Position numbers and translations under genes: made by a program. This document shows positions 38,740 through 55,663 of a stretch of 64,000 nt of DNA, one piece after another. Within the stretch, counting starts at the first letter, position 1. Each line of letters opens with the position of its first letter. Where the stretch lies: assembly GCA_003104935.1 (NCBI GenBank), contig PQAE01000003.1, positions 9,350 to 73,349 of the forward strand, read 5' to 3'. Source of the DNA: Parcubacteria group bacterium (GTDB lineage Bacteria; Patescibacteriota; Patescibacteriia; UBA1558; GWA2-36-10). The notes under the pieces were generated by a model. That model was not told the origin of the DNA and made no database searches. It worked only from the letters and a program-made list of their open reading frames with translations.

Positions 38740-40032
38740 ATGAACAAACAGCTACGACGACTGCTTTACCTATCATTTATCCTTATTTTTTCAGTTTTGG
38801 CGCCAATCTTCATCGCCTATTCCTTGGGTTACCGCTATCGCTTTGATACAAATATGGTAGAAAAAAACGGCGCATTTTATATCAAATCCTACCCCGGCGG
38901 CGCCGATATTTACCTGGACGGCCAACCTAGCCGTCACCGCACGCCGGATCAGATTACGGAAATCCGTCCGGGATCTTATCTGGTCACCATCATTAAAGAG
39001 GCCTTTGTGCCCTGGCAAAAAAAATTAAAGGTTTTGCCCGGCGAAACCACTTTTATTCAGGATGTGGTTTTGTTTTTTTCCGATATTAAAAAAAATAGCC
39101 TGGGATCGGGCAGTACTAATTACCTGGTCAACCGGACCAAAAACCAATATGCCTACGTTGATAATAAAAGCTACCAGCTATTTATCACCGATATCGAGCA
39201 GGATAAAAATTATCAGATCTATGATTTTATAAACAATTATCAGTTATTGGACTGGTCGCCTGATAACCAGAAAATACTACTCGGCCTAGCGGGCAAATAT
39301 TATATTTTTGACATCAATCAAAAGAATCTCCAAACTCTATCCCTGCCCATAGCGGACAAAGTCAGTTGGGACAGTAAAAACTCCCGGATTTTGTGGCTCA
39401 GCACAAAGCAAGGCCTGTACACCTATGATCTGGAGGCGGCCCCAGCCGAATCTCTATCGGAGATTAAGCTGAATAAAAAAATTTATGATTTTGCAGTGCA
39501 GGACGAGTATCTTATTATAGAATATAGCCTGGGAGATAAATATTTTTTGGAACAATTGGATAAAAATGATTTACAACCTCTGCAAACCTCCGAAAATATA
39601 ACTCCCGGAAAAATACATTTGCTTTTGGCCGATAGACAAAGGTTTATATTGACCGTCGGGTCTATTCTCTATATCAAAACGCTGGAAAAAGAGGCGCTGA
39701 CCATACCAGTAACCTTAGCCGACATCCATGATGACCGCCTACTCATCTCCAACGGCAATGAAATTATTTTGTACAATTTTAAAGAAGACTGGCAGGATCT
39801 GATCGACCGCTCCACCCAGATTGTTTCTGATTTACTCTGGCATCCCAACGGTAGCTACTTTATCACCGAGATTAACTCTCGCACAAACCTAACCGAAGTA
39901 GACAGCCGTGATAAGCGCAATACCATCAATATTATAGATAACCCTCTGAAAAAATCCTACATTTTTAATAAAAAAGGAGATAAACTTTTTGTGCTCACCC
40001 CGGAGGAAAATTTTTATCTGACGATACAATAA
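38740..40032 (+). CDS. Membrane-anchored PEGA-domain plus beta-propeller-like protein
   Basis: N-terminal TM; PEGA-like segment (FYIKSYPGGADIYLDGQP...RPGSYLVTIIKEAFVPWQKKLKVLPGETTFI); repetitive beta-rich remainder. Confidence 0.55.
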   Translation: MNKQLRRLLYLSFILIFSVLAPIFIAYSLGYRYRFDTNMVEKNGAFYIKSYPGGADIYLDGQPSRHRTPDQITEIRPGSYLVTIIKEAFVPWQKKLKVLPGETTFIQDVVLFFSDIKKNSLGSGSTNYLVNRTKNQYAYVDNKSYQLFITDIEQDKNYQIYDFINNYQLLDWSPDNQKILLGLAGKYYIFDINQKNLQTLSLPIADKVSWDSKNSRILWLSTKQGLYTYDLEAAPAESLSEIKLNKKIYDFAVQDEYLIIEYSLGDKYFLEQLDKNDLQPLQTSENITPGKIHLLLADRQRFILTVGSILYIKTLEKEALTIPVTLADIHDDRLLISNGNEIILYNFKEDWQDLIDRSTQIVSDLLWHPNGSYFITEINSRTNLTEVDSRDKRNTINIIDNPLKKSYIFNKKGDKLFVLTPEENFYLTIQ

Positions 40033-40042
40033 AACAGGTAGT

Positions 40043-40088
40043 GCCGCGGCGCGCCATTCAAGAAAAGTATGGTTAGGCGCGCCGCGGC
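40043..40088 (+). terminator. Perfect 13-bp all-GC inverted repeat (GCCGCGGCGCGCC, 20-nt loop, GGCGCGCCGCGGC) followed by a T-rich tract
   Basis: Lies 11 nt after the stop of the 38740-40032 gene and marks the left edge of the high-GC insert. Confidence 0.45.
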
Positions 40089-40190
40089 TTTAATATTGAC
40101 AAAACTAAATAAATCTGCTAATTTATAGTGTTTGCAATGACCTGGTTGCGACCAGATCAAAATCGTTCCTCACAGAAAGGATATTACTTC

Positions 40191-40691
40191 ATGGGCGCGC
40201 TGTTGAGCAAAAAAGCTGCCAGCATGGCCATTTCCATCATCTCGCCGAGCGTGATCCAGCTGCTCCGCCAATCGATAATTCTTGGCGGAATCTTCAAGCG
40301 AGGACAGCTGCACGTGGTCGTCTTGGATCCCACGTCGAGATGGGAACAAGGGGCAGAGATCATCGACGCTGTCCTGGCCGAGTACACCTTCAACGAGGAC
40401 AACCGGCCACTGGAAGGACCCTATCGCGACATCGCGTTGGGCAAAGCCATGGTGTCCTGGCGCACTGGCCAACCGTCCGGCTGGGTCGCCCAGTTCGCGC
40501 CTCATCTTCTGCTTCCCGGCGACTCCAAGCACCGTGGCTCCTGGGTCACGGACGGTATCGTGACCACCGCCAGCGGCGTGCAAGGCTACTTCGACGAGAT
40601 GGTCGCCAAGTGGCTCGGCGCGGCCTGCAGTGCCCTGAGTCGGCATCAGATGGAAGCCATCATCCTGGACAAGGAACGCGACACAGTCTGA
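40191..40691 (+). CDS. High-GC (about 60%) cargo gene; possibly GlcG/HbpS-like (DUF336) haem-binding family protein
   Basis: AAAGGA RBS 9 nt upstream. Codon third positions are GC-rich, unlike the neighbours. The motif pattern (VVVLDPTS...DIALGKAMVS...PGDSKHRGSWVTDGIVTTASGVQG...) loosely fits DUF336 but this was not searched. All six frames are open here, a signature of high-GC DNA. Confidence 0.55.
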   Translation: MGALLSKKAASMAISIISPSVIQLLRQSIILGGIFKRGQLHVVVLDPTSRWEQGAEIIDAVLAEYTFNEDNRPLEGPYRDIALGKAMVSWRTGQPSGWVAQFAPHLLLPGDSKHRGSWVTDGIVTTASGVQGYFDEMVAKWLGAACSALSRHQMEAIILDKERDTV

Positions 40692-40808
40692 TTGCCACGC
40701 GACCAGACAAAACGGCACCCTAAAGATCTTACAACATGTAAATCAACGGGGTGTCGTTTTCGTTTTCCTAGCTAAATTGAGCATATTTTACTTATCCACA
40801 GCTAACTT

Positions 40809-40838
40809 CTTGACGTTCGGTTTTTGTTCGGTATATAA
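40809..40838 (+). promoter_or_regulatory. lexA promoter (TTGACG, 17-nt spacer, ATATAAT)
   Basis: Immediately followed, at 40851-40885, by copy 2 of the roughly 35-nt motif in the operator position. Confidence 0.45.
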
Positions 40839-40850
40839 TAAAGATATTAG

Positions 40851-40885
40851 TTCTCGACTCTCCCACTCCGTGGGATTCGCTCGAA
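40851..40885. promoter_or_regulatory. Copy 2 of the roughly 35-nt structured motif; candidate LexA operator (SOS box)
   Basis: TTCTCGACTCTCCCACTCCGTGGGATTCGCTCGAA lies between the lexA -10 and its start codon. It is the reverse complement of copy 1 with compensatory changes in the central hairpin. Confidence 0.4.
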
Positions 40886-40905
40886 CAAAAATTAACTAAA
40901 ATTCT

Positions 40906-41502
40906 ATGCCTCACTTAACCAAAAAACAAAAGCAGATACTGGATTTTATTACCCAGTTTATCCAGACAAATGATTATGCTCCTAGCTATCGGGAGATCGC
41001 CGAACACTTTGGCCTATCCTCTACCGCTACTATCCACGAGCATGTCATGGCACTGGAAGATAAGGGACTTATCTCCAGCGGCCACGCCGCCCGTTCTCTG
41101 GAGGTAATCAGCCCGCGCTTTGGCAAGAGCATTGAATTGCCCTTGGTAGGTCTGATCACCGCCGGTGCGCCTATAGAGGCCATTGAAGAACACGAGACAA
41201 TTGCTGTGCCGGAAAACTTGGTTAATGACGATAACAGTTTTGTGCTCAAAGTACGCGGCGAATCTATGATCGAGGAAGGAATACTATCCGGCGACTATGT
41301 CATAGTGGAGCGAAACTATTATCCTAAAAACGGTGATGTGGTTGTAGCTCTCTTAGATAATACCTATGCCACTCTCAAAAAATATTATCGGGAAAATAAC
41401 CGCATCAGACTGCAACCGGCCAATAAAACTATGAAGCCGATCTATGCTAAAAATCCGGCTATACAGGGAGTAGTCAAGGCGATCCTAAGAACTTTTGCCT
41501 AG
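40906..41502 (+). CDS. lexA: LexA repressor (S24 peptidase)
   Basis: N-terminal winged helix; C-terminal VRGESMIEEGILSGDYVIVE with Ser and downstream Lys. Confidence 0.85.
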   Translation: MPHLTKKQKQILDFITQFIQTNDYAPSYREIAEHFGLSSTATIHEHVMALEDKGLISSGHAARSLEVISPRFGKSIELPLVGLITAGAPIEAIEEHETIAVPENLVNDDNSFVLKVRGESMIEEGILSGDYVIVERNYYPKNGDVVVALLDNTYATLKKYYRENNRIRLQPANKTMKPIYAKNPAIQGVVKAILRTFA

Positions 41503-47251: not shown

Positions 47252-48028
47252 ATGTCCAGCAAGAGTGCGTATAAGCCGGCCGAAATCCGGTCGATCAATT
47301 CCTGGGCCAACCGCAGTATGCGGATGAGCCAAAAGAGAATGACACTCATCGGCATTTTCGGCCTGATCGCACTGCTACTCGGCATGTTCTGCCGGGTGGC
47401 AATCAGTGAAGGAGCTACTCTCCCCGATTCTCTGGAACTGAGGGCTCTGCAGTTGCAGGCCGCTGGAAGAGTTGTCGCGGCAGACAGTCTGCGAAAGGTC
47501 TTTACCGCACAAATCGTTTTGGCGGAGCGCCAAAAAGCAATCCAGGATTCCCTCACTGCCCTTCAGAAAGCCGCTCAGCTGGAGCTGTACCGCCGGCATC
47601 TGGACGCCAAGGTCAAGCTCTGGTCGTCCTGGGATGCCAAAGTCACTCCTCTGCCGATCGATTCGGTGTGGGTCTGGGCCGGCTGCGACTTCGACAAGCT
47701 CAATTGGTTGGCCGCTCGGTATCATATTCAGTACGACATCAAGTCGTCACTGAACGACAATGCGACGCGCATGGCCAATGAGATGAAAGCACGCAAGCAA
47801 TTGCGCACTGAAGTTAGCCGCCAGCTGAGAACCCAGTTGACCGGACTCACCTCGCAGGTGAACAAACTCGAACAGCGCGTGGACGCCTGCGAACAGAACA
47901 TCGCGGCCATTCGAAAAGCCGTGGTGAAAAACGGCTTTGACATCGGAGCCGCCCTCTCCGTCCTGGAGCAGACGGCCGGTGTGGCCTGTGTCAACGCCGC
48001 GCGCGGAAAAGCGCGACAAGATAAGTAG
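47252..48028 (+). CDS. High-GC (about 57%) cargo gene: N-terminally anchored coiled-coil membrane protein of unknown function
   Basis: AAGGAGG RBS 7 nt upstream; one TM (LIGIFGLIALLLGMFCRVAI) then a heptad-rich region; strong terminator downstream; all six frames open, a GC artefact. Confidence 0.6.
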   Translation: MSSKSAYKPAEIRSINSWANRSMRMSQKRMTLIGIFGLIALLLGMFCRVAISEGATLPDSLELRALQLQAAGRVVAADSLRKVFTAQIVLAERQKAIQDSLTALQKAAQLELYRRHLDAKVKLWSSWDAKVTPLPIDSVWVWAGCDFDKLNWLAARYHIQYDIKSSLNDNATRMANEMKARKQLRTEVSRQLRTQLTGLTSQVNKLEQRVDACEQNIAAIRKAVVKNGFDIGAALSVLEQTAGVACVNAARGKARQDK

Positions 48029-48043
48029 TAAGAGGTAACAAAA

Positions 48044-48095
48044 GCCGCCCCGACAAATCGCGTTAGCGATGAAGTCGGGGCGGCTTCTTCAATTT
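48044..48095. terminator. Intrinsic terminator (GCCGCCCCGAC, 19-nt loop, GUCGGGGCGGC, then UUCUUCAAUUU) between convergent genes
   Basis: 11-bp GC stem followed by a T-rich run. Confidence 0.6.
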
Positions 48096-48116: not shown

Positions 48117-50351
48117 TTAATTTTTTTCCAGCCGCTTATTTATTTGCTCCAGTATTTCCTTATAACCGGCTTCCAATATTCTGACTCTTTCTCCCTCACT
48201 ATTCTCCAAAAAGGGCAACATACCGCGCGCACCCTCTATATCCTCTTTTAGTTTACTGAGGTAGGCCAGATCGGCGGATTGGATTTTATCCATATTAAAA
48301 TGAAAGGAAGGATCACCGCGGTTTATACTTTCAACTGCCAGTGCTACTGGTTCCACTTTTACCTGTTCGGTATCCGGAGCCACATCCTTGACGGTTTCCA
48401 GATCTATAACGGCCGGTTGCTCTGTTGCTGGTTTGATTTGGTCACTGGTATCAATGATCTTCGGCTCATCATCAATCACTGTTTTATTGGGAATTTCCCA
48501 GGGAGATTTTTGACCGGTGGCGGCAACATCGCTTTCCGGGGTATTATATTTTACCTCTGAACCTTCCAGGGTTTTATGCTCCGGCGCCCAGGGGGACTCG
48601 GTGGACTTGGGTACAAATGTTTCTTCTGGCTGAACCTTGTCCGGCAAAGGTATTTGAGACTCGGATGGGTGTGGGTCAACAGCTTGTTGAAAATATCCCG
48701 CCTTAAAGGCCTGTTGCATTTGTTTAGAGTCCTGAATCGCGAAATCTTGGCGTTCATCACCGTTGGTATCCACAAAATAGCGATCGCTACGCATCGGCCA
48801 GGAACCGGTATGGTATTTTTGGATCAAAGCATATTGACCTTCAGGGCCGAGTTGGACCGGACGCCAAATATTAGCTTCACCGCCTTTTATGTCATTAAAG
48901 CTCTTGACAACATTGTCATCCAAGGATTTTGCTAGGTCATCAATGGAACCTTGCTCATGGTAATTTACGCTTTCAGCATGATGTTTAAGCTGATGATAAA
49001 AAACACTGGTTTTATCCGGACTGAAATTGTGCTCCCGGCCATAATCATTGACGAAATGATGCAGGTTACGGTCGCTTCTGGTTTCCAGAACACTATGAAA
49101 TAAATCGTTTACTTTGCCTTCGGCTTTAGCCGCCTCAAACAACTGAGCATTATAGGATGCGCCGCGTTCGCTCAAAAATTCGTCCAACCCCGCCTCGGGA
49201 TGACCGGCTACTGCCCCTGTTTCCACAGGATGGGAAATGATGCTGTGCTCACTCATAAATTTATCCAGATCTGCCGGAGACATTTCCAGAGAACGACCGT
49301 CTGGCATAACTACGTTTGGCTGGCTATCACGGTCCCAATCATAAACCTTATAAACTCCGTCTTTGCCATGAATTTCCATATACTGATTGCCGGTTTGCTG
49401 GTCTAGATGAACTCCATGCTCCACTTCCGGATTAAATTTAGCATCCGCAAAAATCTTTTCCATGTTATTATCAGGCAGATGACCGGCTTTGATGCCGGAG
49501 GAGGCCTCAAAACTCAGGTGCGGATGTCCGTCCTTGAAATCAACTACCACCTTATCCCCGCTATGTACCAAGTCGGCCAGATTGCCGCCCTGTTCCTTAT
49601 TGAGTTGAGCGACTAAATTAGCAGTCTGATTTTCGGCAAATTTATCCAGAGCCACGTGATCATTGATATCACCGTGATAGCCGAACTTCTCTGGATTATG
49701 CTCTATCATATCATGGGTAGAACGCCAAATAGAATCACTGCCCTGGACTTTACTGGAATCAATAACGTCTTCTAAATGAGTAACCGAAGCTTGACTGGCC
49801 TGAGCATGTTCCATAGTTGGAATCCAGTTAGCTTCCGGACTCGTCGGCTGACCAGCAACCTTGTCCGGATCAGCCGTAAAAGGAAATCTTTCTGTTGCCG
49901 AAGTTTTATCAGGATGAAATTCTTGTTCCGGACTAAGTTCACCGTGCTGACCGTCGGCGTCGTGATGCCTACTCATGTTCATAAATAAACCTCCGGCGGC
50001 TCCCAGCACCGCTCCTCCTATAGCCATACCCAATTTTAATTTTTTAGAATCCGAAATTATTTTTTTGGTGTCTTTTTCCATCTGTAGCCCCAAAGATTTG
50101 GTGTGTTCACTGATACCTTTAAGCAGATCAGCGGCATTTCTTTTGTTCCGATTGTTTTCAAAGTTCTGAAAATTATAGAGAAAATTTTCCGCCCGGCTCT
50201 TGAGCATAGGGTCGGCCTCGAAAGTCCCGAGTTTTAATTGGCTCTGCACCAGCAGGACGTTTTTCTTGACTTCGGCTAAACTCTTGGCGGGTATTTCTAA
50301 ATCTGTGATAGCGGCTTCGGCCTTATCAATAATCTCCTCTATCTTCTTCAT
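48117..50351 (-). CDS. Giant coiled-coil/glycine-zipper membrane protein B (about 744 aa; unknown function)
   Basis: Start chosen at the Met that gives an ATGA overlap with the upstream stop (plus-strand tcat at 50348-50351); the ORF-track alternative start is 50402. N-terminal coiled coil, GxxxGxxxG transmembrane glycine zipper (LGMAIGGAVLGAAGGLF), then a roughly 600-aa His/Asp/Glu-rich soluble region. Confidence 0.6.
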   Translation of the reverse strand: MKKIEEIIDKAEAAITDLEIPAKSLAEVKKNVLLVQSQLKLGTFEADPMLKSRAENFLYNFQNFENNRNKRNAADLLKGISEHTKSLGLQMEKDTKKIISDSKKLKLGMAIGGAVLGAAGGLFMNMSRHHDADGQHGELSPEQEFHPDKTSATERFPFTADPDKVAGQPTSPEANWIPTMEHAQASQASVTHLEDVIDSSKVQGSDSIWRSTHDMIEHNPEKFGYHGDINDHVALDKFAENQTANLVAQLNKEQGGNLADLVHSGDKVVVDFKDGHPHLSFEASSGIKAGHLPDNNMEKIFADAKFNPEVEHGVHLDQQTGNQYMEIHGKDGVYKVYDWDRDSQPNVVMPDGRSLEMSPADLDKFMSEHSIISHPVETGAVAGHPEAGLDEFLSERGASYNAQLFEAAKAEGKVNDLFHSVLETRSDRNLHHFVNDYGREHNFSPDKTSVFYHQLKHHAESVNYHEQGSIDDLAKSLDDNVVKSFNDIKGGEANIWRPVQLGPEGQYALIQKYHTGSWPMRSDRYFVDTNGDERQDFAIQDSKQMQQAFKAGYFQQAVDPHPSESQIPLPDKVQPEETFVPKSTESPWAPEHKTLEGSEVKYNTPESDVAATGQKSPWEIPNKTVIDDEPKIIDTSDQIKPATEQPAVIDLETVKDVAPDTEQVKVEPVALAVESINRGDPSFHFNMDKIQSADLAYLSKLKEDIEGARGMLPFLENSEGERVRILEAGYKEILEQINKRLEKN

Positions 50352-52429
50352 GGCCTTAACCTCCTTGACCCGCTCAACACCCTCAGCGGCCATGTAACCC
50401 ATACCAGCGCCGACAAGGCGCCGGTAGCCACCCTCACTAATCCTACCTGTTGCACCGCAAAAGCCATGGTCGCACCAAAACCGATACTCAAAGCAGTGTG
50501 CTTATGCCTAGTTATTATATTATCATCTTGTTCCGACTCAGCGCCCTTAAATCCTCCTTGGGCCAGATTATACCTGGCAATTAATTTAAAGTAGCCAGGT
50601 TTTTCCTTTTTTATTCGGTCCAAACTATCCTTGGCCGCAATCTCGTTTCGTTCATGCTGAGCTAAGATCTCCGCCACCATCACAGCGGCGCTACGCACCT
50701 GATCCGGAGAGGCCTTGGCATATTCTGGGTCGGCGCTAATCATGTTATAGGCCCGATAATAAAATTCTTGAGCCACCTCACCCAATAACTCGGTCTGCTT
50801 TAAAACATCAGCGCCTTTTGATTGTTCAGACTGATATTGTCCTAAAAGCTCCCGGGCTTGCTCATTGGTCTGGTCGCGCAAAACATTGCTCAGAGTAGCG
50901 CTGATTTTACCGCGTACCTTATCTTTATTTTTGAAAAGCTCCTGCAACACCCTATCTCTTTCCTTGGCCACTTCCTTGATCTTATCTCCGGCCTTGGCGG
51001 TCTGTCGCTTTTCTAATAAATATTTGTATAATCTACTTACTGACGCCCCACCTAGAGCACCACCAGCCGCGGCCACGCCACCGATAACCAAAGAAGGAGC
51101 GATCACCGGTAAAAGAGCAGCGGTGCCGAGCAATGTCGCGGCGGTACCGCCGGCAATAGCGCCCATCTTCAGAGCATTTTTACCAAAACCTTTAGCCAAA
51201 CCCTTCCAGGAATCCTGTCCGCTAAGCGCCAAGTTTACCTCTGCTTCAATACTAGACTCTAGGGCCTGCTGGATGGTCTCAGCCGCTTCCCTAACCTGCT
51301 CCTCGGTCATCAGATCTTCCATATTCTTGGCGGCCAGGATCTCCTTTATTTTGCCGGCATAGAAATTATTTATCTCTTCCTTAACTGTCTCCAGTTTAGC
51401 CTGGAGCTCCGCCAGATTGGTTTCTGACGATATGCCGACTGTGTCTTCGTCCACGGTTTCCGGTCCGGCCGGCATCTTTTTCTTTTTTTTCTTTTCTTTT
51501 TTCGGCGCTTTATCATCCGCTTCCGCCAGACTCAGTTCCTGGCGAGCGTGATTATAATTTGATAAAAGGTGTTCTAAAAAAACTGCCTCGGCTTCGGAAA
51601 AATTCTTCATTATTTCTACGGAACTGACGTCCACAAAACCTAGTTCTCTTTTTATTTTCTCCAAATCCGGAGCAACAGATTTCGGCTCTTTAATGGGTAA
51701 AACCGGTTTCTTTTTTTCTTTTTCTCGTTTTTTTTCTGCCCGGCTACCAGCTTTATCGCCTTCGTCTTCGGGATTTATGTTTTCGGCGGTTCTCGGAGGA
51801 TTGGTTGGCGGTGGCGGAACTGTTGGGCCGGCGGTTGACCGACGAGATGGTGTTTCGGTATCAACGTCAAGCGGTTCTTCCTTTTTCCGATCTTTATCCG
51901 CTACCGACTCCGTTGTTGATTCTTTGGCCGGAGACACTACTCCACTCTCCTCAAAATCAACATAGACAACCTCCGACGTTTTTAATGTCGGCGCCAATTC
52001 ACCGGATTTTTCCGCAGTCCCCCGGCCAGCAACGCGCTGAAAGGAATTTTTTACGCTGGCTAAAGCTCCGCGCGCTTTTTCCGCATATCTTTTGGCGGCC
52101 GACCGCACAGGCTCGCAACCACTAGAACTAGCCGCCTCCCGGGCAGTAGCATCAATTTTTCTGCTTAGCTCCTCTACTACTTCAACATGACTCATCCGGC
52201 CACCAACATCGCGACTTCCCGGCTCACTTGTTTCTCCTAATAATTGCTCCACTTTTGCCGCGCCAGCAGTGCCGGTAGCCGCTTCCGCCCGATAGGCGGC
52301 ATCATTAAAATCACCGGTCTTGACCTGTAGACTATCTGCCAGGCCTTCCAGTAAGGCTACTTCTGCTTCCACCGAGATTTCTGGTCTGACCTCCGGGATT
52401 TCCGGCGTGCTGGTTTTTTTCTCGTCCAT
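50348..52429 (-). CDS. Giant coiled-coil/glycine-zipper membrane protein A (693 aa; unknown function)
   Basis: Acidic coiled-coil N-terminus; Pro- and Lys-rich low-complexity tracts (KKEKKKKKK); glycine-zipper TM hairpin (GAIAGGTAATLLGTAALL...IGGVAAAGGALGGA); a second hydrophobic segment near the C-terminus. Confidence 0.6.
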   Translation of the reverse strand: MDEKKTSTPEIPEVRPEISVEAEVALLEGLADSLQVKTGDFNDAAYRAEAATGTAGAAKVEQLLGETSEPGSRDVGGRMSHVEVVEELSRKIDATAREAASSSGCEPVRSAAKRYAEKARGALASVKNSFQRVAGRGTAEKSGELAPTLKTSEVVYVDFEESGVVSPAKESTTESVADKDRKKEEPLDVDTETPSRRSTAGPTVPPPPTNPPRTAENINPEDEGDKAGSRAEKKREKEKKKPVLPIKEPKSVAPDLEKIKRELGFVDVSSVEIMKNFSEAEAVFLEHLLSNYNHARQELSLAEADDKAPKKEKKKKKKMPAGPETVDEDTVGISSETNLAELQAKLETVKEEINNFYAGKIKEILAAKNMEDLMTEEQVREAAETIQQALESSIEAEVNLALSGQDSWKGLAKGFGKNALKMGAIAGGTAATLLGTAALLPVIAPSLVIGGVAAAGGALGGASVSRLYKYLLEKRQTAKAGDKIKEVAKERDRVLQELFKNKDKVRGKISATLSNVLRDQTNEQARELLGQYQSEQSKGADVLKQTELLGEVAQEFYYRAYNMISADPEYAKASPDQVRSAAVMVAEILAQHERNEIAAKDSLDRIKKEKPGYFKLIARYNLAQGGFKGAESEQDDNIITRHKHTALSIGFGATMAFAVQQVGLVRVATGALSALVWVTWPLRVLSGSRRLRP

Positions 52430-52433
52430 ATGC

Positions 52434-52613
52434 TTAAAACTGCGACTTAATTTTTTCTAATATTTTATCCATGGCCTCATTTTCCTGACTGCGATGGGCC
52501 TCTAACTTTTGCCTGGTATAATTATCCAACTTAAATATAATCTTATCTAACTCACTCATCAGATTTTTATGAAGCGCCTGGATGTCGGCTAATATTTTCT
52601 CTTTATCGGACAT
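52434..52613 (-). CDS. Small 59-aa coiled-coil protein (MSDKEKILADIQALHKNLMSELDKIIFKLDNYTRQKLEAHRSQENEAMDKILEKIKSQF)
   Basis: Fills the 52430-52615 gap exactly: starts 3 nt after the upstream stop and ends 5 nt before the next start. Not in the ORF track because it is under 60 aa. Confidence 0.4.
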   Translation of the reverse strand: MSDKEKILADIQALHKNLMSELDKIIFKLDNYTRQKLEAHRSQENEAMDKILEKIKSQF

Positions 52614-52615
52614 AA

Positions 52616-52954
52616 CTATTCTGCCTTTTTTAAATCCATCAATTTAGCGGCGCTACTTAAAAACTCTTCGCTAAATTGGGCTAAGGTTTTTTTAACCTTA
52701 GCTTCAAAATCCGGAATTTCTTTATTAAAAAACTCCAAAAGCATTTTCTGATCCGGAGTTTCATTTTCCCTCATGATTTGCTCAAATTTTTTCAGGCCGT
52801 CCTCGTCCAATTCGCCTAGGGCCATGATGCCCAGACGCTGTTCTACTTCCGCCCTCAATTTCTGCAGATAATCCTTTTTAAATTCCTCCGGCAGAGCATC
52901 AATGCCGGCCTTGGTTAATAGTTCTGCCACATAGGTGGCAATAACATCCTCCAT
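52616..52954 (-). CDS. Small acidic helical protein (112 aa; unknown)
   Basis: ORF in an operon position between the SPFH gene and the giant genes. Confidence 0.5.
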   Translation of the reverse strand: MEDVIATYVAELLTKAGIDALPEEFKKDYLQKLRAEVEQRLGIMALGELDEDGLKKFEQIMRENETPDQKMLLEFFNKEIPDFEAKVKKTLAQFSEEFLSSAAKLMDLKKAE

Positions 52955-53058
52955 ATTTTTTTTTACTACTTAAATCACCCATATTATCTAATATTTCCGT
53001 AAAAAAAGCAACCCCGTCCCCTACACCGTGATGGTATAGGGAAACGGGGTTGCGGCTG

Positions 53059-54711
53059 TCAGGTTCTGCTTCCGATGTACTTGCTGATCCCATCCAGGAA
53101 TCCGGCCGGGAAGGCGACGGTTCCGCCGCTCTCAGCCAAACGCAGGGCGGTCAGTAGACGCATGGCTTCGGCCTTGTCGCCGAGATCCAGACTCTGGTAG
53201 ATGGCTTCTACCTGCCGAACGATGAAATCACCTTCGCCCTTTCCTTGCTCAGCCCGAGCCCGAGCGTACTTGACGGCCGTCTGGATTTTGGTCTCCGCAA
53301 CACGAAGCGCCTTCTGGGCCGCCTCGATGTCGGGTGACTGATTGACGTCCATGATCTGGAAGCGGACCAGGCGCACGCCGGTATGGCGACGGAGATCCTC
53401 AGCCAGATACTGAGGGAAGGTCTCGTAGGTACGCCCTTCCCTGCTCAGATCGACCATGTCGATTTCGGTCAGCAAACTCTGCTGGCGCTCCTCAACTAAC
53501 TGATGGAAGTTGGTGAGACGCGGGTCTTCTGCCGGACCTCCTTCCGGAGCGACGTAAGGTTTGGACGTGATCTCTGTCAGCAACTCCTTGCGGACTTGCT
53601 GTTCGATCTGCGTCTCCCGCTTACGGTTGATGTCGGCCACATTCCCCAAGTAGGGATTTTTGACCTTGGCTTCGTTGTTGGTGAGCTGACGGGTGTATTC
53701 CGTCAGTGCTCCTTCGACATAGCGGGCGATCAGTCCTTGGAACTTGGCATCGTCTGAACGGTCTTCGTCGGCCAGGCGCAAGAAAGGTCTGGGATCGTGA
53801 CGCATGACGGTCAGCTTGTAGGCGATCTGAATCGGCGGTCCAGGTTCGGTGCCGACAGTCGCCTTACCGTTTTCATCTACATCCAGCAGTTCCGGACGGG
53901 TTGGGATGAACTCGGTCTTCAGTGCCGTGCCCTTGGGACCGTTGATTTCCAGCTCCTCGCAGAAGAGCTCGGCGATGTCAAAACCGGGAAACCAACTGGG
54001 AATCAGGATCAGGTTCAAACCCTCATCCATCCAGCGCCTATTGAGCATCAGCCGATTCCACAGCCAGCTGGGCTTGAGGCCCATCTCTCTGCGGATCATC
54101 TGCTCAAAGTAGCGCTCTTCCTCGTTGAGTGCCTCGGACTCCTTCTCATTGGAGTCGGTGTACCGGATCTTGGACAGATCGGGCAAACCATAGCGAGGCT
54201 TCTTGAAGAAGATGACTACCCAACGCTCACGAAGATTAGGGTTGTAGAAACAACTCATCAAGTAACCGACACCGGCTCCCATGATTCCGGGAAGCCATGA
54301 CCAGGCTGAAGTGTGCCAGATCCACCACAACAAAGAGCCGTGGAAAACCAGACATCCAATCAGTCCCGGCCAATGCAAACCGGCCTTGTTCAGATCTTTG
54401 CCGGTGAGAGCGTCAGTCCTAGCGTTCCAGGACTTCGGTACCAGAACGGAAAAGAGCCGCCATAGTCCGAGGCCAGAAACGACCAGTGTCAACAACCACT
54501 GCCACCAAGAAAGATGCCTAAGCACCCCACTGATGTAGATCAGACCGATGATCAACGGGACCAGAATGGTCTGTCCCCAATTGATCTTTTTCGCCTTGAC
54601 CAGATTGCCAGTGGTGATGAAGCCGATGAGCAGAAGTAGCGCGAGTACCGGCCAGTGGTAGTAGTGATTCCAGTACCACATGACCTTATCCCAAAAGAGT
54701 TCGAACGACAT
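53059..54711 (-). CDS. SPFH/band-7 (flotillin/stomatin-like) protein with Trp-rich multi-TM N-terminus; high GC (about 57%)
   Basis: SPFH core (IPSWFPGFDIAELF...IQIAYKLTVMRHDPRPFLRLADE...FQGLIARYVEGALTEY) followed by a coiled coil; AGGAGG SD. Overlapping ORFs in all frames are GC artefacts. Confidence 0.65.
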   Translation of the reverse strand: MSFELFWDKVMWYWNHYYHWPVLALLLLIGFITTGNLVKAKKINWGQTILVPLIIGLIYISGVLRHLSWWQWLLTLVVSGLGLWRLFSVLVPKSWNARTDALTGKDLNKAGLHWPGLIGCLVFHGSLLWWIWHTSAWSWLPGIMGAGVGYLMSCFYNPNLRERWVVIFFKKPRYGLPDLSKIRYTDSNEKESEALNEEERYFEQMIRREMGLKPSWLWNRLMLNRRWMDEGLNLILIPSWFPGFDIAELFCEELEINGPKGTALKTEFIPTRPELLDVDENGKATVGTEPGPPIQIAYKLTVMRHDPRPFLRLADEDRSDDAKFQGLIARYVEGALTEYTRQLTNNEAKVKNPYLGNVADINRKRETQIEQQVRKELLTEITSKPYVAPEGGPAEDPRLTNFHQLVEERQQSLLTEIDMVDLSREGRTYETFPQYLAEDLRRHTGVRLVRFQIMDVNQSPDIEAAQKALRVAETKIQTAVKYARARAEQGKGEGDFIVRQVEAIYQSLDLGDKAEAMRLLTALRLAESGGTVAFPAGFLDGISKYIGSRT

Positions 54712-54802
54712 TTTCCTTACCTCCTACATTGAAAAAAAAATTCTGACAGCTTTTCAAAGGACTTGTCCCGTGGATATATTTTACCCACTGTAATAACAGT
54801 AT

Positions 54803-54831
54803 ATTATATCACATATTTAAAATATTGTCAA
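54803..54831 (-). promoter_or_regulatory. Perfect consensus promoter (TTGACA, 17-nt spacer, TATAAT) for the SPFH operon
   Basis: Minus strand: ttgaca (plus tgtcaa at 54826-54831), 17 nt, tataat (plus attata at 54803-54808). Confidence 0.55.
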
Positions 54832-54906
54832 TAACAAATTTATCTAGCAAAATAGGCTTAAAAACACTCTTTTTAAGCCCATTTCTTGGTAGAATTTTTT
54901 CAATAA

Positions 54907-55560
54907 TTAGGCCTTTCCCCTGCTTTCGGACCGATGCGCAAAATATGAATAGACAATAGTGCTCAGGATCAGAGCCATTGCTAAAATAAAAGTATAGACA
55001 GTCCAGCTGTCGGGGTAATATGGCGTTAGTATAAATAGCAATCCGGCGATTATAAACATCTTGGCGCCAAATTTATGGGTCTTGGCCCAGACATAGGGAC
55101 TAGATATGGTCCAGGGCGTACGGATGCCAACAAACCAATTGGGTTTTATCTGGGGCAGATACAAGCCCATAAATATAAACATCAGACCGATCAAAGTCGT
55201 CACTGTCCAGCCGATGGAAATATTATAGCCGACATTTACCAGGTTTGATATTATATAAATTACGGATAATAAAGATAAAATGCACAATTGAATGACCAGG
55301 TAAGGAAATTTAAATTCTTTATAGCCCTTTGCCAGAGGATCGATATGCGGCAGAAACTTGAACAACAGCCACATAAAAATTAACAATGACGGAAAAAAGA
55401 TAACCTGAAAATTTTTACTGCTCCAGCCGTTTGCCTCACCGTTTATTCCCCAGTGGGTGACGACCTTGGCCGGCAAAAGCGGGTAAAAATAAAACGAGCT
55501 ACCGACTGCTGCTAACAAAATTAGCAGGATGATGAGATTGACAATTTTTTCTTTGTTCAT
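54907..55560 (-). CDS. SdpI/YhfL-family membrane protein (DUF1648-SdpI; immunity-protein-like)
   Basis: N-terminal DUF1648-like segment (THWGINGEANGW) then polytopic SdpI-like TM helices; start placed at MNKEKIV. Confidence 0.55.
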   Translation of the reverse strand: MNKEKIVNLIILLILLAAVGSSFYFYPLLPAKVVTHWGINGEANGWSSKNFQVIFFPSLLIFMWLLFKFLPHIDPLAKGYKEFKFPYLVIQLCILSLLSVIYIISNLVNVGYNISIGWTVTTLIGLMFIFMGLYLPQIKPNWFVGIRTPWTISSPYVWAKTHKFGAKMFIIAGLLFILTPYYPDSWTVYTFILAMALILSTIVYSYFAHRSESRGKA

Positions 55561-55663
55561 ATATTTTTTCTTACGGCTCCTAGCTGATAGCCTATAGTAC
55601 ATAATTTATAATCACTAAAAATCCTGACCATAAACAATAGGCCATCAGCTATGGGCCGACTAA

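Follow-up and report, generated by a model that had tools for sequence, protein, structure and literature searches.

A cassette of genes within a 64 000-nucleotide stretch of a Parcubacteria metagenome-assembled genome (contig PQAE01000003.1; the whole of this stretch is termed the window) encodes a divergent SPFH-fold membrane protein that is tied by conserved synteny to one particular giant membrane protein without known family. This pairing of an SPFH protein with a DUF5663 protein and its giant partner is an undescribed variant of SPFH–client organization. Five genes, which we term g1 to g5, run in that order on the minus strand, and the cassette proteins have been deposited as C3F02_01120 to C3F02_01140. 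The original prediction for this region, made from its sequence, described a single tightly packed five-gene operon, led by an SPFH gene and encoding two giant glycine-zipper proteins. All five open reading frames are indeed present. The association of an SPFH protein with a large, glycine-rich, non-enzymatic membrane protein also stands, for the linkage is kept in 10 genomes and the giant falls into no known family. However, the two giants are in origin one gene that has been cut by a one-base frameshift, and the genes do not form a single operon, since a terminator follows the SPFH gene in all eight of the loci checked.

Judged by the fold of its model, the protein encoded by g1 (53059–54711, minus strand; 550 amino acids) belongs to the SPFH superfamily as a new and very divergent member. 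The AlphaFold2 model, made from an alignment of 19 sequences, has a predicted local distance difference test score (pLDDT) of 81.7 and a predicted template modelling score (pTM) of 0.68. On comparison with the PDB using Foldseek the 11 best matches were all SPFH proteins, with a probability of 1.0 and E values between 8.7e-7 and 1e-2; the matches include human stomatin (9z7u), HflK/C (9cz2, 7vhq and 7wi3), QmcA (8z5g) and flotillin (9l3g). At the level of sequence, the match to the Pfam family Band_7 (PF01145) has E = 0.014 and 15.9 bits, below the cut-off of 23.6, and PF01145 is matched at E ≤ 0.01 by only five of the 19 members of the g1 family, the best of these having E = 1.8e-5. No SPFH chain was found in a sequence-profile search of the PDB with the g1 alignment. 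Because the Band_7 match is sub-threshold, it is the fold by which g1 is assigned, and in this sense the leading gene is an SPFH gene as predicted. A word-indexed search gave three relatives of g1, and an exhaustive phmmer search of 1.84 billion representative proteins gave 19 at E ≤ 1e-3.

In the model five N-terminal transmembrane helices (approximately residues 1–153), matching the hydrophobic segments of the sequence, are followed by an SPFH α/β domain with insertions (approximately 160–458), a coiled-coil helix of 50 residues (460–509) and a further helix (513–527). Ring-forming SPFH proteins typically have a long C-terminal helix of this kind. The positive-inside rule, when used on the loops, would put the N-terminus outside the cell and the SPFH domain in the cytoplasm. 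In general, SPFH proteins enclose client membrane proteins in rings or cages that are attached to the membrane (PMC12624060, PMC11260169, PMC12344292), and g1 may likewise assemble into an oligomeric ring or cage. Like the proteins of the SPFH cage–client complexes (HflK/C–FtsH, QmcA–YbbJ/NfeD, stomatin and flotillin), g1 has the α/β domain, the coiled-coil helix and a membrane anchor, and it too is encoded beside membrane proteins that are possible clients. It differs from them in anchoring by five transmembrane helices rather than by one helix or a hairpin, in the large insertions within the SPFH domain, and in scoring under the Band_7 threshold. Moreover, no NfeD, FtsH or other protease partner is found among the scanned cassette proteins and the adjacent genes, NfeD being absent from g1 to g6 (g6 is a convergent neighbour, described below) and from the SdpI gene next to them, even when Pfam matches up to E ≤ 1 are allowed. 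In place of these, the putative client is a non-enzymatic protein of 1200–2000 amino acids without known family. A search of the literature on SPFH proteins in Patescibacteria found nothing relevant.

How widely is this arrangement conserved? In 10 genomes a g1-family gene, a DUF5663 gene, a gene encoding 55–59 amino acids and a single giant open reading frame lie between Fpg (sometimes together with SdpI) and Dus–CorA, so that the gene neighbourhood is fixed. In one relative, L001 (the related loci carry L numbers), the order is Fpg, g1 (45% identical), DUF5663, the 59-residue gene, one gene of 1557 amino acids, a convergent gene of 264 amino acids, Dus and CorA. The linkage takes in relatives of g1 as remote as E = 2.6e-9 (P0023, 830 amino acids). 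The giant is 1557 amino acids long in L001, 1230 in L003/L004, 1226 in L005/L012, 1158 in L006/L009, 1273 in L008, 1999 in L010, 1694/1667 in L024/L030 and 1260 in L028/L029; L011 is counted among the 10 cassette genomes and is left out of this range of lengths. The cassette is best described as a vertically inherited, lineage-restricted module of one Parcubacteria clade. Three contigs with this Parcubacteria-type synteny (L009, CAZILH010000012.1; L011, CAYUER010000005.1; L007, JABHDU010000052.1) have been deposited as ‘uncultured Gammaproteobacteria bacterium’ or ‘Bdellovibrionales bacterium’, and are probably mis-binned or mislabelled.

After g1 comes g2 (52616–52954, minus strand), encoding a soluble helical protein of 112 amino acids. 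It matches Pfam PF18908 (DUF5663) with E = 8.4e-11 and 42.7 bits against a cut-off of 23.7, over profile positions 1–84 of 84, and is the only one of the six proteins g1 to g6 to exceed any threshold in Pfam, NCBIfam, PHROGs or PADLOC. The same match has been precomputed for the orthologues in L001, L003, L004, L030 and L027, and the protein in L013 is above the PF18908 threshold on a direct scan. A sequence-profile search of the PDB with the g2 alignment gave no match. The DUF5663 family has no described function and is not mentioned in the literature searched. We also observe that g2 gives weak matches to SelO/YdiU that fall consistently in the same helical part of its C-terminal region (NCBIfam E = 6.6e-4; Pfam SelO E = 0.032, approximately profile positions 303–396), which may be a shared helical module or noise. 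The next gene, g3 (52434–52613, minus strand), encodes a helical protein of 59 amino acids, for which an alignment of seven orthologues has a conserved C-terminal motif D-x-I-L-x-K-I. Thus both small helical proteins that had been predicted after the leading gene are present, the larger of them a member of DUF5663.

A metagenome scan with the DUF5663 alignment gave 12 loci, in which a homologue of the giant lies beside DUF5663 wherever the locus has room. As far as we have found, this constant pairing of DUF5663 with a giant glycine-zipper protein is undescribed. In four more distant loci (L013, L019, L023 and L026) the pair is present without g1 or g3, flanked by housekeeping genes (TsaE, DnaB, SecA, LeuRS, KsgA and L20/IF3). 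Therefore the DUF5663–giant pair is the older and wider module, to which the SPFH and 59-residue genes have been added in one clade. Indeed, g3 is limited to the clade that also carries the SPFH gene, and is absent from L013 and L026.

In the window the giant is divided between g4 (50348–52429, minus strand; 693 amino acids) and g5 (48117–50351, minus strand; 744 amino acids, or 761 if the ATG at 50402 is used), which contain its N- and C-terminal parts respectively. If the g4 frame is read as far as ...VATGALS, and the g5 frame from AGMGYMAAEG, the joined reading has 1437 amino acids. This aligns with the 1557-residue protein of L001 in a single BLASTP high-scoring segment pair, running 1–1436 to 1–1556, with 40.5% identity. 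The homology passes from the g4 to the g5 frame at approximately 50405–50415 on the minus strand, where one base is missing compared with the intact orthologues and where there is a G-containing stretch, TCGGCGCTG, at approximately 50410. The junction falls inside the motif RVAxGAxAGAGxGY, which is unbroken in those relatives whose sequence spans it, and the final 19 codons of g4 are an out-of-frame tail. The nine other cassette genomes have a single giant open reading frame, of 1158–1999 amino acids where sized; the nine relatives of g5 are mostly of 1150–1270 amino acids. Over 8082 nucleotides the window is matched with 100% identity, the frameshift included, by a Logan assembly of run SRR5381729. 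Because this independent assembly has the same sequence, the frameshift is present in the reads and was not made by the assembler. No other variant at ≥90% identity was found in a collection of 15 billion proteins. The GenBank annotation can therefore be corrected, C3F02_01120 and C3F02_01125 being one frameshifted gene.

There is no slippery heptamer where the homology changes frame, and programmed ribosomal frameshifting was dropped on these grounds. A protein beginning ‘MGY...’ (P0008) was considered as an independent, naturally divided gene with the same break point; its frame runs on upstream to the end of the contig, and it is consequently a truncated gene call. The annotated start of g5 (ATG at 50351) overlaps the g4 stop codon in an ATGA and lies 8 nucleotides downstream of AAGGAGG, a heptamer that occurs six times in the 64 kb, and the g5 frame is open from approximately 50500. 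The AAGGAGG together with the overlapping ATG makes it plausible that the distal half is translated independently or by coupling, and g5 may still be made as a second polypeptide.

Hydropathy, charge and alignment suggest a layout for the giant, given here in residue numbers of the joined reading. Residues 1–420 would be a cytoplasmic, charged coiled-coil region rich in Lys, Pro and Glu that varies between genomes. This is followed in g4 by a putative glycine-zipper transmembrane hairpin (422–465), and then a helical domain that is predicted to be cytoplasmic (470–645). The frameshift falls in a second glycine-rich hairpin (646–685), of which g4 has the first half. A further helical domain carrying an LKSRAENF motif (690–797) leads to a transmembrane helix with GxxxGxxxG (799–819), and finally there would be an acidic ectodomain of approximately 620 amino acids (820–1437). 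The flanks of the transmembrane segments have a net positive charge, and the ectodomain is net negative (−26 and −15). Of the GxxxGxxxG zippers predicted in both giants, one strict motif is found, at residue 806; elsewhere there are runs of small-xxx-small, at 419–465. The membrane core (approximately 350–830) is conserved out to L013 and L026, and the ectodomain and N-terminal region vary greatly in length. Ectodomain residues 890–1242 are fairly well conserved, with 35–43% identity. A full-length AlphaFold model of an orthologue of the giant (P0007) is poor, with pLDDT 55 and pTM 0.26, and only the ectodomain reaches 75–85.

The giant has no match in Pfam, NCBIfam, PHROGs or PADLOC, and nine homologues compared with Pfam at E ≤ 0.1 have no family in common. 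A sequence-profile search of the PDB with the giant alignment gave no relative, and there is no significant match to a toxin or pore fold. A profile search with the giant alignment in a set of 5.8 billion proteins gave back g4 alone, probably because the candidate list had been swamped by low-complexity words. The closest approach to a tape-measure protein is a match of g4 to Pfam Tape_meas_lam_C with E = 0.064 and 13.8 bits, against a threshold of 23. As had been noted from the sequence, the Walker A, HExxH and DHH motifs are all absent. A LysM-like reading of the segment GSDSIW...NLADLVHxGDKV in the ectodomain was rejected, since four orthologous segments gave no Pfam LysM match even at E ≤ 10.

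The cassette appears to be expressed in two parts. Upstream of g1 is a perfect σ70 consensus promoter (54803–54831, minus strand), TTGACA and TATAAT separated by 17 nucleotides, with a TG extended −10 element; on a consensus scan no other site in the region matches at 12/12. Both this promoter and the AGGAGG Shine–Dalgarno sequence (54720–54725, 8 nucleotides before the g1 ATG) had been predicted. In eight related loci the promoter upstream of the g1 orthologue scores 11–12/12, and always has the TG extension. The transcript would begin with a leader of approximately 90 nucleotides (54712–54802, minus strand). Leaders of 90–115 nucleotides are found in all the relatives (L001, L003, L005, L006, L010, L028 and L030), often beginning with a hairpin followed by a GWCYTTGRAA-like motif. 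However, a cis-regulatory RNA within the leader is unsupported, as there was no Rfam match, and RNAalifold gave no consensus fold across eight leaders.

Directly 3′ of the g1 stop codon lies an intrinsic terminator or attenuator (53001–53053, minus strand), comprising a GC-rich hairpin and seven U nucleotides, with a folding energy of −42.7 kcal/mol and a z-score of −6.6 compared with shuffled sequences. A hairpin and T-run occupy this position in every one of the eight loci checked, although their stem sequences are unrelated to one another. The terminator is contained within a gap of 104 nucleotides between g1 and g2, so the close packing of genes that had been described does not extend to g1; it is found for g2 and g3 (2 nucleotides apart), g3 and g4 (4 nucleotides) and the overlapping g4 and g5. 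Between the terminator and g2 there are only weak promoter-like sites, scoring 8–9/12. From this layout we infer that g1 is made in excess, with smaller amounts of g2, g3 and the giant resulting from read-through or a weak promoter. On this arrangement the scaffold would outnumber its putative client, as would fit a ring of many subunits.

The base composition of g1 is unusual. It has a GC content of 55.7%, and 69.7% at third codon positions (GC3), compared with a window mean of 44%. Thus the excess that had been noted is clear, although the figures are not those given originally (57% against 40%). The convergent gene g6 is similar (57.1% GC and 69.9% GC3), and g1 and g6 are the top GC outliers among all open reading frames of at least 250 amino acids in the window. 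The g1 genes of L001, L003, L005, L006 and L010 likewise have an excess of GC and GC3, at 10–14 points above a local background of 38–45% GC, and this holds down to weak similarity (E ~ 1e-10); for g6 the excess is seen again in L010 and L030. The conservation of the excess in relatives of g1 means that it is maintained, and is not the fading signature of a donor, so that a recent transfer is ruled out. Selection for GC-ending codons, perhaps through expression level or mRNA stability, seems more likely than horizontal transfer, and a high GC content in one gene of a low-GC genome is not necessarily a sign of foreign origin. We observe further that the orthologues of both g1 and g6 keep the GC3 excess though their genomes are of 36–45% GC, and that both genes have near-consensus promoters and AGGAGG-type sites.

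How might these components work together? We propose, with a probability of about 0.45, that the cassette encodes an SPFH-scaffolded, non-enzymatic, envelope-spanning complex made in two expression units, for which the g2 and g3 proteins are cytoplasmic adaptors. The consensus-strength promoter would drive g1, most transcripts ending at the terminator that follows it, while read-through or a weak internal promoter would give lower amounts of g2, g3 and one giant. The g1 protein would oligomerize into a membrane ring or cage in the manner of other SPFH proteins. The giant would have around 800 cytoplasmic residues in a coiled-coil or helical-bundle scaffold, two glycine-rich hairpins dipping into the membrane, the GxxxGxxxG helix and an ectodomain of approximately 620 amino acids outside the cell. 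Its glycine-zipper membrane segments would be corralled by the g1 cage into a microdomain, while g2 and g3, as adaptors or chaperones, would bind to its helices in the cytoplasm. In this way the complex would form a structural link, without enzymatic activity, between cytoplasm, membrane and cell surface. This scaffold reading is the best supported because the linkage is deeply conserved and the arrangement of promoter and terminator is consistent with an excess of scaffold.

A number of points weigh against such a complex. The topology of g1 is drawn from the positive-inside rule, and given the poor model of the giant its domain architecture is derived from hydropathy and alignment. Physical interaction between g1 and the giant is presumed from gene linkage, and in at least four distant loci the DUF5663–giant pair has no g1-family gene, so that the SPFH protein is an addition rather than a necessity. 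It is just as possible, given the conserved terminator, that g1 has a function independent of the other genes. Lastly, since the giant is frameshifted, this particular organism may not need the module, or the module may not work in it.

The last point leads to the possibility that the giant is a recent pseudogene in this genome, so that the cassette is decaying and the two giants are artefacts of annotating a broken gene. The lesion lies within a conserved glycine-rich hairpin, every relative examined has an intact single reading frame, there is no slippery site that would allow programmed frameshifting, and the second assembly argues against an assembler error. Yet the two assemblies are probably derived from the same sequencing run, so a systematic read error is possible, and the halves are otherwise intact, with no further stop codons over 4.3 kb and full-length alignment with a relative; the AAGGAGG placed 8 nucleotides before an ATG that overlaps the upstream stop also fits coupled translation of a second polypeptide. 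We consider decay to be a serious possibility, though on the doubtful side. Rather less likely in our view is a surface or host-attachment device, with which the episymbiotic cell would make contact with its host or with its own wall. Here the ectodomain, acidic and variable, would act as an adhesin or bind the wall, the cytoplasmic coiled coil would do no more than anchor it, and the SPFH gene would be an unrelated housekeeping neighbour. The terminator separating g1 from the remaining genes and the occurrence of the DUF5663–giant pair elsewhere without SPFH would fit with this, as would the variation in length of the ectodomain and N-terminal region (giants of 1158–1999 amino acids) around a conserved membrane core, and the nearby genes for large secreted proteins with dockerin/EF-hand-like motifs. 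But no adhesin, repeat or carbohydrate-binding family was detected, nor any LysM match; the 890–1242 region of the ectodomain is fairly well conserved, unlike fast-evolving adhesins, and the SPFH linkage persists through deep divergence within the clade.

The original prediction also raised a pore or defence system. In a pore-forming, defence or toxin system of this kind the zippers would oligomerize into a channel, as for VacA or the toxins of type VII secretion systems (T7SS), and the small proteins would act as chaperones or immunity factors. The glycine motifs are what speaks for the pore, defence or VacA-like idea, and glycine-rich transmembrane helices are common packing motifs that are not diagnostic. 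There is a superficial likeness to Lap1/Lap2–LXG loci (PMC12744356, 10.1101/2023.07.21.550046) in the two small helical proteins preceding a large helical one. However, there was no significant PADLOC match (the best has E = 0.015) and no significant match to a toxin or pore fold, neither a polymorphic C-terminus nor an immunity-gene pattern was seen, there is no occurrence on viral contigs, and the genes are single-copy at a fixed position among housekeeping genes (LeuRS, SecA, KsgA, Fpg and Dus) in every lineage. A system of this kind is therefore improbable. Least probable of all, to the point where we give it hardly any weight, is a mobile or phage-derived module that has been recently acquired, such as a tape-measure-like protein. 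Two GC outliers and the sub-threshold match of g4 to the λ tape-measure C-terminus might point in this direction, and the region had indeed been read as a mobile module in the course of domestication. This reading is countered by the identical synteny in 10 genomes and by the GC and GC3 excess of g1 kept in five relatives. In addition g1, g4 and g5 had no PHROG match, no relatives of the cassette were present in 2.9 million viral contigs, and the PADLOC database gave only noise (REase_II with E = 0.019 for g5 and LeoB with E = 0.015 for g6). No integrase, tRNA or repeat boundary was found in the open reading frame lists and family scans of the flanks, though these included no dedicated tRNA scan or repeat search.

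The proposed envelope-spanning complex can be compared with known scaffolds. MapZ/LocZ, EzrA and RodZ are bitopic scaffolds of division and morphogenesis, with a cytoplasmic helical or coiled-coil part, a membrane anchor and an extracellular domain. The giant shares this logic of cytoplasmic scaffold, anchor and outer domain, and its gene is chromosomal and single-copy in a housekeeping neighbourhood, with DivIC and FtsE/X nearby. It differs in lacking sequence or fold similarity to them, in being 3–5 times larger and in having three predicted membrane-inserted glycine-rich segments; the likeness is one of overall logic. With Mic10 (of MICOS), VacA and the T7SS toxins EsxX/TspA the giant shares small-xxx-small or GxxxGxxxG motifs in hairpin-like hydrophobic segments, but this resemblance is at the level of the motif, with no homology, and the cassette has no toxin–immunity organization and no secretion-system genes nearby. 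A bolder extension of the proposal, which we regard as speculative and unlikely, is that DUF5663 and the giant are the core of an undescribed, Patescibacteria-specific trans-envelope apparatus reaching from a cytoplasmic coiled-coil scaffold to the cell surface, for which one clade recruited a highly expressed five-transmembrane SPFH cage and a 59-residue adaptor. This would perhaps stand in for missing parts of the divisome, elongasome or cytoskeleton, or form the base of an episymbiotic contact site.

Many dark giant membrane proteins are encoded in genomes of the Candidate Phyla Radiation. To our knowledge SPFH proteins are widespread in bacteria, and their clients are mostly unknown beyond the HflK/C–FtsH and SPFH–NfeD pairs. 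If the proposed SPFH-scaffolded complex is correct, the cassette would offer a concrete new SPFH–client pair to test, and with it a way to begin on the function of DUF5663 and of one such dark giant. The fixed linkage to SPFH and the clean expression design make it experimentally approachable.

At the downstream edge of the cassette lies g6 (47252–48028, plus strand), a convergent gene whose product of 258 amino acids has a coiled coil and a single transmembrane helix. The gene is provided with a near-consensus promoter and an AAGGAGG site of its own. The intervening sequence contains a GC-rich hairpin (48044–48084, assigned to neither strand) formed by an 11-bp perfect inverted repeat, GCCGCCCCGAC...GTCGGGGCGGC, which is probably a bidirectional terminator. 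Orthologues of g6 are found in L001 (264 amino acids, convergent) and L010, with a weak match of 35 amino acids only in L024 and none in the L003, L005 and L006 loci, and a sequence-profile search of the PDB with g6 gave no match. The idea that g6 is a paralogue of g1 was dropped, as there is no similarity between them. It is an optional neighbour, and whether it belongs to the cassette is uncertain.

At the upstream edge a membrane protein of the SdpI/YfhL family (DUF1648 plus SdpI; 54907–55602, minus strand) is encoded between Fpg and g1. The same gene is present in L010, L024/L030 and L028, and missing in L001, L003, L005 and L006, and is thus a variable insertion. Elsewhere in the window there is a local GC peak of 50.5% at 40001–41000, adjoining LexA, where overlapping reading frames of approximately 185 codons each lie on opposite strands (40128–40691, plus strand, with no Pfam match; and 40170–40718, minus strand). 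Beyond SdpI, the minus strand at 56613–61433 encodes two large predicted secreted proteins, of 937 and 656 amino acids, with dockerin/EF-hand-like calcium-binding motifs; the larger protein contains in addition Cys-rich repeats and a tract rich in Asp and His (DDSDDHDGDDDHDGDDNDNDDD). In relatives, large proteins with weak dockerin-like Pfam matches are encoded on this same Fpg side of the cassette.

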